Shown here in pieces: positions 36,551 through 38,822 of a DNA stretch of 64,000 bases. The translations under genes were made by a program, and so were the position numbers. How positions within the stretch are numbered: the first letter of the stretch is position 1; every line of letters begins with the position of its first letter. Location: contig JABISL010000050.1 in NCBI GenBank assembly GCA_018700055.1, positions 99,946 to 163,945 of the forward strand, in the 5' to 3' direction. The notes below the pieces were generated by a model. It had not been told where the DNA came from. It saw only the letters and a list, made by a program, of their open reading frames with translations, and searched no databases. The DNA is from a bacterium. GTDB lineage: Bacteria > Margulisbacteria > Marinamargulisbacteria > UBA817 > JABISL01.

Positions 36551-37537
36551 GTGAGTTTGCGACGTATAATTTGTGGGATGGCTATCGGGGTCTTGATGGG
36601 AACTGTTCCTGTAACCTCTAGCTCAACACAGCATGTTCAAACTATTGTATTTGAACATTACTTCACCTCTGATAATGGCACAATCGGTATGGGGGGATTC
36701 ACTTTTGATACCTTTCTCAATGACTCATTATTCTATCGACTGTCTGTTCTGGAGGCTGTCGGAGGTGTTAATCGTGCAGGTTATGCAGTGGCTGGATTTG
36801 GGGTTGGTTGGCTTACACCAGTCGCTCCGCGCTGGAATTGGACGGGCGCACTGGAAGTCGGTGCTGGTGGTGGCGGCCATTTAACAGAAGGTACCGGGGG
36901 GGGATTATCATTCAAATATCAAACCGGACTCCACTATTCCATCAACCCAGAATGGGGATGGGCCGTCTCAATGGGTTGGCTAGATTTTCCTGATGGGACA
37001 CTCCATACACCAATAGTAAGCACAGGTCTCACTTGGCGCCATTGGGATTACCGCAACACTGATACTGATGCTGTTCCGAAGGAAGCTATCAAAAGTGTTC
37101 AAGTCCTTACGCTTGACCACAAATCCTTTATATACAATCAAGATTCCGGCGAAACCATTTCGTTGATTGGAGGTCGCTTTCGCAAGTTCATCACGCCGAC
37201 CATCTATTGGGGGGAAGCTGGATATGCGGCTATAAGCGGCAAACGTCATGGCTATATTGAAGGCGCACTTATCGGAGGCATTCGGTCTATATTTATGGAC
37301 CGTTTGGTCTGGGACCTTGGGGTTGGCATAGGGGCAGGTGGAGGGGGCGGGGACTCAAGAGAAGGGGACGGATTAATGGTTCAGACTTATGCGGAACTGG
37401 GTTATTCCCTTACAGATCGTTGGGCGCTGTCGTATCAAGTCGGCACGATGTCGTTTGTGAATGGGGACATCAACAGCACCGTTTCGGGACTTAATTTGGG
37501 ATACACCCTTTGGTCTGTTCAAGGCGCAGCTAAATGA
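36551..37537 (+). CDS. Glycine-rich secreted protein containing two copies of a ~130-aa module; putative small beta-barrel/outer-membrane protein
   Basis: Signal peptide. Internal duplication. Aromatic-Gly alternation (GYAVAGFGVGW..VGAGGGGHL..GWLDF). Confidence 0.55.
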   Translation: MSLRRIICGMAIGVLMGTVPVTSSSTQHVQTIVFEHYFTSDNGTIGMGGFTFDTFLNDSLFYRLSVLEAVGGVNRAGYAVAGFGVGWLTPVAPRWNWTGALEVGAGGGGHLTEGTGGGLSFKYQTGLHYSINPEWGWAVSMGWLDFPDGTLHTPIVSTGLTWRHWDYRNTDTDAVPKEAIKSVQVLTLDHKSFIYNQDSGETISLIGGRFRKFITPTIYWGEAGYAAISGKRHGYIEGALIGGIRSIFMDRLVWDLGVGIGAGGGGGDSREGDGLMVQTYAELGYSLTDRWALSYQVGTMSFVNGDINSTVSGLNLGYTLWSVQGAAK

Positions 37538-38028
37538 AAATTATCTCACTGGCACTAATCTTTTCTGCCTCGATTTTACTCACTCCTTTAATAGGCACGG
37601 AACGCCATATTGAGCATTTTTATTATGAAAATTATTTGGGTGATAACCAAGGCCTAACCGGGTTAATTGGGTATTATCATGACACCTATATAAGCCCCCA
37701 TGTGTACTTCACTGTGGGAACGGCCTGGGCCACAACTGGGTTTCATGGCGGATATGGGACAGCGGCATTAGGTCTAGGGTATTCGGCGCCATTAAATGCT
37801 GACCTGGAATGGGACGCTAAGGTTATGGTCGGCGCTGGCGGACACTTTTTAATTGAAGCGGGCGGCGGAATTTTGACCCAGTGGCAAACAGGGCTACGCC
37901 ATCGTTTAGCAGATCATTTTTATGGAGAGATTCGCTACGGTGGGCTAAATTACCCGAATGGAAACTACTCTGTGAATACACTCAGTTATGGTGTTGCTGT
38001 AGATTACTCGGTATTAACATGGAAATAA
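37534..38028 (+). CDS. Single-module paralog of the preceding glycine-rich protein
   Basis: Signal peptide. Clear homology to each module of the 328-aa neighbour (VGAGGHFLIEAGGGILTQWQTGL). ATGA start/stop overlap with the upstream gene. Confidence 0.55.
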   Translation: MKIISLALIFSASILLTPLIGTERHIEHFYYENYLGDNQGLTGLIGYYHDTYISPHVYFTVGTAWATTGFHGGYGTAALGLGYSAPLNADLEWDAKVMVGAGGHFLIEAGGGILTQWQTGLRHRLADHFYGEIRYGGLNYPNGNYSVNTLSYGVAVDYSVLTWK

Positions 38029-38822
38029 GCACCGAAGTCATTATTCGATTGGGCGGATTTCTTACTGTGTTGATTGGCATAAGTATTTTGGAATTGGTTT
38101 TTCCAAGACAGACTAGAAAACCACATCATTGGCGACGGTGGTGGAACAACCTGGGACTCTCAACGTTTAATTCACTCTTGATGCGCTTTGTATTCCCATG
38201 CGCTGCTGTTTGTACCGCTATTGTTTGTGAACAAAAGGGAACTGGGTTGTTTTATCAGATTTCTGTTTCGAGCTGGGTCCATATAGGTGTTTCTTTATTA
38301 CTTTTAGATCTCGCTATTTATTGGCAGCATGTCTTAGTACACAAGGTGCCATTTCTTTGGCGATTCCATAAGGTTCATCATGCGGACACCTTTATGGATG
38401 TGAGTACGGGAACGCGTTTCCACACCATCGAGATATTAACATCTATGGGTCTAAAGCTAATCCTTGTCGCCTTAATCGGCGTAGCCCCCATTGGGGTTTT
38501 GCTTTTTGAGTTGGGGTTAAACTTAGGTGCCATGTTTAATCACAGTAATATTCACCTGCCGTATTGGATAGACCGTGTTTTGCGTTTGATTATCGTAACA
38601 CCAGACATGCATCGTATTCATCATTCGGTTCATCGAGCTGAGCATGACAGCAATTACGGATTCAATCTGTCGTTGTGGGACTATTTATTCCGTACTTATA
38701 CGCCTGCACCAAAAGAAGGGCAAGAAAAGATGGCCGTTGGTTTGCATAAATATCGAAGTCATCAGTGGATGAGTATCTGGCCATTATTTACATTGCCCTT
38801 TCGAAAACCCGATTCTGAATAA
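38019..38822 (+). CDS. Fatty acid hydroxylase / sterol desaturase superfamily membrane protein
   Basis: Histidine boxes (HKVHHAD, MHRIHHSVH). Four TM helices. The start was chosen at MEISTEV (38019), because the upstream part of ORF 37881 lies inside the previous gene. Confidence 0.65.
   Translation: MEISTEVIIRLGGFLTVLIGISILELVFPRQTRKPHHWRRWWNNLGLSTFNSLLMRFVFPCAAVCTAIVCEQKGTGLFYQISVSSWVHIGVSLLLLDLAIYWQHVLVHKVPFLWRFHKVHHADTFMDVSTGTRFHTIEILTSMGLKLILVALIGVAPIGVLLFELGLNLGAMFNHSNIHLPYWIDRVLRLIIVTPDMHRIHHSVHRAEHDSNYGFNLSLWDYLFRTYTPAPKEGQEKMAVGLHKYRSHQWMSIWPLFTLPFRKPDSE

Follow-up and report, generated by a model that had tools for sequence, protein, structure and literature searches.

To our knowledge, multibarrel outer-membrane (OM) proteins are known from computation only, and it is not understood what purpose they serve or how BAM assembles them. 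They include the Poly-8 proteins, among them the predicted 8-8-8 'MB-family 007' (Solan, Pereira, Lupas, Kolodny & Ben-Tal, PNAS 2021, PMC8346858), and all of the MB-families but one are reported to be confined to one phylum (PMC8346858). Barrels of a different kind, the two-barrel GfcD/YjbH proteins and the Wzp porins, are partners of OPX proteins in polysaccharide export (PMC11494523; PMC9603273). In the literature beyond PMC8346858, no described three-barrel family tied to polysaccharide export was found.

Here we describe two overlapping genes, ORF1 and ORF2, from a bacterium of the Marinamargulisbacteria, which lie in a stretch of 64,000 nucleotides that was analysed as a whole (the window). 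Together they probably encode a split protein ('8-8 + 8') that belongs to the predicted class of multibarrel OM proteins, and they are followed by a gene for a putative lipid hydroxylase, ORF3. The features are as follows.

36551..37537, + strand: ORF1, 328 aa from GTG; candidate signal peptide and two predicted eight-stranded barrel modules
36629..37045, + strand: barrel module 1, ORF1 aa ~27-165; eight predicted strands (AF2 strand map, HMM domain); Gly-rich L3 loop VGAGGGGHLTEGTGGG
37091..37519, + strand: barrel module 2, ORF1 aa ~181-323; eight predicted strands; GAGGGGGDSREGDG loop
37534..38028, + strand: ORF2, 164 aa, MBT5856485.1; own candidate signal peptide and one barrel module
37594..38019, + strand: barrel module 3, ORF2 aa ~21-162; eight predicted strands (AF2 strand map, HMM domain)
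38019..38822, + strand: ORF3, 267 aa (as in NCBI), start ATG 38019; integral-membrane di-iron FA_hydroxylase / 'sterol desaturase family' enzyme
38328-38342, 38367-38381, 38541-38555 and 38610-38624, + strand: ORF3 His boxes HVLVH, HKVHH, HSNIH and HRIHH (aa 104-108, 117-121, 175-179 and 198-202)

A preliminary description of the locus had proposed that both gene junctions overlap and that ORF1 and ORF2 each carry a signal peptide. The ATGA shared by the ORF1 stop and the ORF2 start is present, and the overlap between ORF2 and ORF3 is also real, though it spans 10 nt (ATGGAAATAA) and is not an ATGA. Judged from the sequence, signal peptides are plausible on both proteins, each of which has a charged n-region and a hydrophobic core; the candidate in ORF1 consists of MSLRR and the hydrophobic core, read from GTG 36551, and that in ORF2 of MK and IISLALIFSASILL. 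The NCBI version of ORF1 (MBT5856484.1, 319 aa) starts at ATG 36578, but this start would lack the charged n-region, and GTG 36551 therefore suits an exported protein better. A promoter and terminator scan across 36.1-39.5 kb returned fewer matches than were obtained in shuffled sequence and was therefore uninformative.

The recurrence of a Gly/aromatic-rich module, twice in the 328-aa ORF1 and once in the 164-aa ORF2, had been noticed earlier and proved to be a repeat beyond chance. Over a module length of ~140 aa, ORF2 shares 27% identity with the N-half of ORF1 (E=1e-16) and 25% with its C-half (E=6e-7), and the two halves share 23% with one another (E=4e-4). A module HMM run over all six frames of the window detected exactly three copies, at domain E-values of 1e-59, 4e-57 and 9e-60. 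The invariant residues in an alignment of seven modules were glycines, one Ala and two Tyr only, the GAGGGG...GGG hairpin being invariant among the modules, and no His, Ser or Glu position was invariant in the module alignments.

Structure prediction, which the preliminary description had called for in suggesting small OM beta-barrels, gave a high-confidence eight-stranded barrel for each module, and the best structural matches were OprF-N, OmpW, OmpA, NspA and PagL. In the models each module is a closed antiparallel barrel of eight transmembrane strands, ORF1 being predicted to hold two complete, non-overlapping barrels in one polypeptide, and three-domain chains reached a pTM of 0.87; the model of ORF1 with ORF2 is an artificial fusion, the MSA of which was made up of fused homologues. 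The strands alternate between a face rich in L, V, T, Y, G, W and I and a second face of G (33), S, A, T and some polar residues, as for lipid and lumen, respectively. The last strands, running ...GYTLW(SVQGAAK) and ...YSVLTW(K), are aromatic-rich, yet the final residue is K in both proteins, in place of the aromatic residue that closes a C-terminal beta-signal. As the loops are short on both faces and the invariant residues are Gly, Ala and Tyr only, the modules would suit a compact scaffold or docking unit better than a surface adhesin or an enzyme. The lumen of eight strands is too narrow for the conduction of a polymer, a point that counts against a role in polysaccharide export.

At the level of sequence, none of the Pfam or NCBIfam families was reached above threshold by ORF1, ORF2 or ten homologues, with the sole exception of PagL for one homologue (P0008). 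OMP_b-brl PF13505 remained below its gathering score of 28.7 for ORF2 (E=0.22, 12.1 bits) and below threshold for the partners in loci L001 and L005 (E=0.02 and 0.075), and the module profile, run against PDB sequences, gave nothing relevant. The modules are thus related to OMP_b-brl barrels at the fold level only. LpxB and a FabZ-LpxA ORF are encoded within the window; the presence of LpxA and LpxB indicates that the organism is bounded by a lipid A-containing outer membrane.

The module represents a family without a Pfam or NCBIfam model, and is uncurated. We defined this family by an exhaustive module-profile search of 1.84e9 representatives, in which 744 clusters (at 50% identity) matched at E<=1e-3 and 230 at E<=1e-30; a word-indexed homologue search from ORF2 had ORF2 itself as its sole match. 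Among the best 150 of the 744, three modules were present in 130 chains, two in 7 and one in 13, no chain had more than three, and three-module members are typically ~500 aa long. All 70 genome loci came from diderm phyla, of which the family spans at least nine. Where the modules are distributed over separate genes, the genes always overlap or abut and the split always falls at a module boundary: the arrangement is 2+1 in the window, L001 and L002-4, 1+1+1 in L005-8 (with overlaps of 8 and 11 nt) and 1+2 in L075, and P0025, from the window's own clade, is a natural colinear fusion; 2+1, 1+1+1 and fused forms all occur in that clade. What is conserved is the trio of barrels, usually in one polypeptide, a point absent from the preliminary description. 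Three is not universal, as a sister subclade has two modules, encoded as 1+1 in L087 and fused in P0024, P0030 and P0034. Profiles of the canonical modules M1, M2 and M3 gave a clean assignment of the L072 and L075 fragments. With such position-specific profiles, module 2 (the ORF1 C-half) scored best against M1 and module 3 (ORF2) against M3, and module 1 (the ORF1 N-half) resembled M3/M2; the assignment of the window-clade modules to the canonical three stayed ambiguous, and neither colinearity nor circular permutation is claimed.

These data bear on how the three barrels are organised. Three ordinary small OmpX/OmpW-like barrels could have arisen by tandem duplication and could each function independently of any obligatory complex, whether as adhesin, small hydrophobic channel or structural protein, and this would fit with the frequently monomeric state of eight-stranded barrels, the identity of just 23-27% between modules and the existence of the two-module subclade. 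However, module number and adjacency are conserved between very distant members, fused chains far outnumber all other forms, split genes never part company, the three-domain chains are modelled with the pTM given above and the loops are not long enough to form an adhesin-type surface; we therefore consider independent paralogues unlikely. A single heteromeric pore of 24 strands, 16 contributed by ORF1 and eight by ORF2, would agree with the total strand number, with splits at module boundaries and with Foldseek matches of the whole three-barrel model to OprD, TonB-dependent receptor and FadL barrels (E ~1e-8 to 1e-6). In the models the barrels nevertheless close separately and do not merge into one large barrel, and we regard such a pore as highly improbable. 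The Foldseek matches named above, from the PDB, were low-TM matches to large barrels only; they were judged uninformative and rejected as evidence for 24 strands.

The preliminary description had also identified a His-box hydroxylase or desaturase downstream, and this holds, as ORF3 matches Pfam FA_hydroxylase PF04116 (E=1.8e-26, 93.6 bits against a cutoff of 31) and resembles that superfamily in its His boxes, of the HX3H, HX2HH, HX2HH pattern, and its roughly four hydrophobic, potentially transmembrane segments. The best NCBIfam model was OlsE (NF052566), but ORF3 is not OlsE because its 82.9 bits lie far under the equivalog cutoff of 475. In GC and GC3, ORF1-3 compared with their neighbours showed nothing that marks ORF3 as foreign. 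The combination of barrels and a lipid-modifying enzyme into one envelope module found no support beyond this genome: an FA hydroxylase stands beside none of four clade relatives (L001, L002, L005, L088), and the barrel-hydroxylase order is not kept in these relatives, which is the observation that the preliminary description had itself named as speaking against such a module. Across 81 loci a homologue within 6 kb was found once only (L048), and was non-adjacent there. Conversely, no barrel module was present in the three contexts of the closest ORF3 homologues, where the neighbours were rhodanese/MBL or S4/alginate-lyase genes, and the ORF3 family is very common, with >7000 close matches. 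The position of ORF3 is a lineage-specific arrangement outside any conserved system, with a barrel neighbour in this genome only. These distributions argue against a lipid-remodelling module in which PagL/PagP-like barrels, as OM lipid enzymes or channels, work with ORF3 on lipid A or another envelope lipid. PagL, the lipid A 3-O-deacylase (PF09411), is among the structural matches, but the window proteins do not match its model at E<=1, P0008 being the only match, and its His-Ser-Glu triad is not conserved at the invariant positions, so that lipid remodelling seems quite improbable.

A different lead came from the canonical members, beside which OPX, Wzz, GT4 or UppS genes were found at 13 of 66 non-redundant loci. 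These polysaccharide-gene loci belong to at least five lineages and vary in gene order. Sugar-nucleotide and glycosyltransferase genes also lie beside L009 and L011. No such linkage was seen in any of the five window-clade contexts, nor in ~80% of the canonical loci. Because the canonical gene repeatedly adjoins OPX (Wza-like), Wzz, GT4 initiating-transferase and UppS genes, we infer, with low to moderate confidence, that the most likely role of the family is as an OM accessory that helps to export or anchor polysaccharides of the cell surface, an assignment drawn from the canonical clade and not from the window's own.

As a whole, we favour, with a probability of about 0.7, a split 8-8 + 8 OM protein with re-associating chains, from a candidate polysaccharide-accessory family, with ORF3 standing apart. 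ORF1 and ORF2 would each be exported by their own Sec signal peptide, after which BAM would insert each barrel into the outer membrane. The ATGA overlap may couple translation and so give roughly 1:1 production of the two chains, which probably associate and rebuild the three-barrel unit of the ~500-aa relatives, as suggested by the fusion and fission patterns and by the artificial-fusion model. ORF3 would be an enzyme of the inner membrane, native to this genome and coupled in translation, that hydroxylates or desaturates lipids. A bolder proposal, that the family is an ancient pan-diderm obligate (pseudo)heterotrimer, encoded by one to three genes and serving as a previously unrecognised dock or anchor of the OPX/Wzz export machine, we find doubtful; if true, the split operon would be a natural 'complementation' experiment, and multibarrel chains would be covalently linked hetero-oligomers.

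Returning to the split 8-8 + 8 protein, its family is large and widespread among phyla, yet lacks a curated model. The gene forms 8-8-8, 8-8 + 8, 8 + 8-8 and 8 + 8 + 8 offer a direct genetic handle on whether a multibarrel chain is a fixed hetero-oligomer and on how BAM treats several barrels in one chain, and the recurrent OPX/Wzz/GT4/UppS neighbourhood is a functional lead that is testable in cultured species, carriers among them being Mariprofundus micogutta ET2, Psychromonas aquimarina ATCC BAA-1526, Sphaerotilus mobilis DSM 10617 and Sphingobacterium bovistauri. For annotation, the tempting module of barrel and lipid hydroxylase is unsupported, and is now corrected.

Compared with single eight-stranded barrels of Pfam clan MBB (the OprF/OmpA N-terminal domain, OmpW, NspA and OmpX), the modules show sub-threshold sequence similarity, lack the OmpA_C peptidoglycan-binding domain, and have very short loops, the GAGGGG...GGG hairpin and an organisation in sets of three. 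PagL differs in that the window modules have neither a match to its model nor a conserved triad. GfcD/YjbH and Wzp are similarly OM beta-barrels encoded beside OPX/Wzz, and GfcD is likewise a multibarrel chain; however, their barrels are 12/13- or 18-stranded with a usable pore or lateral gate, their sequences are unrelated to the window's family, and an OPX gene does not adjoin the window operon. The closest likeness in architecture is to the Poly-8 multibarrels, with several non-overlapping eight-stranded OM barrels per chain and short linkers, and to MB-family 007, the canonical relatives being exactly 8-8-8, a comparison made by architecture. From these the window differs in having its three barrels on two polypeptides (8-8 + 8), and from the MB-families in belonging to a family found in at least nine diderm phyla.

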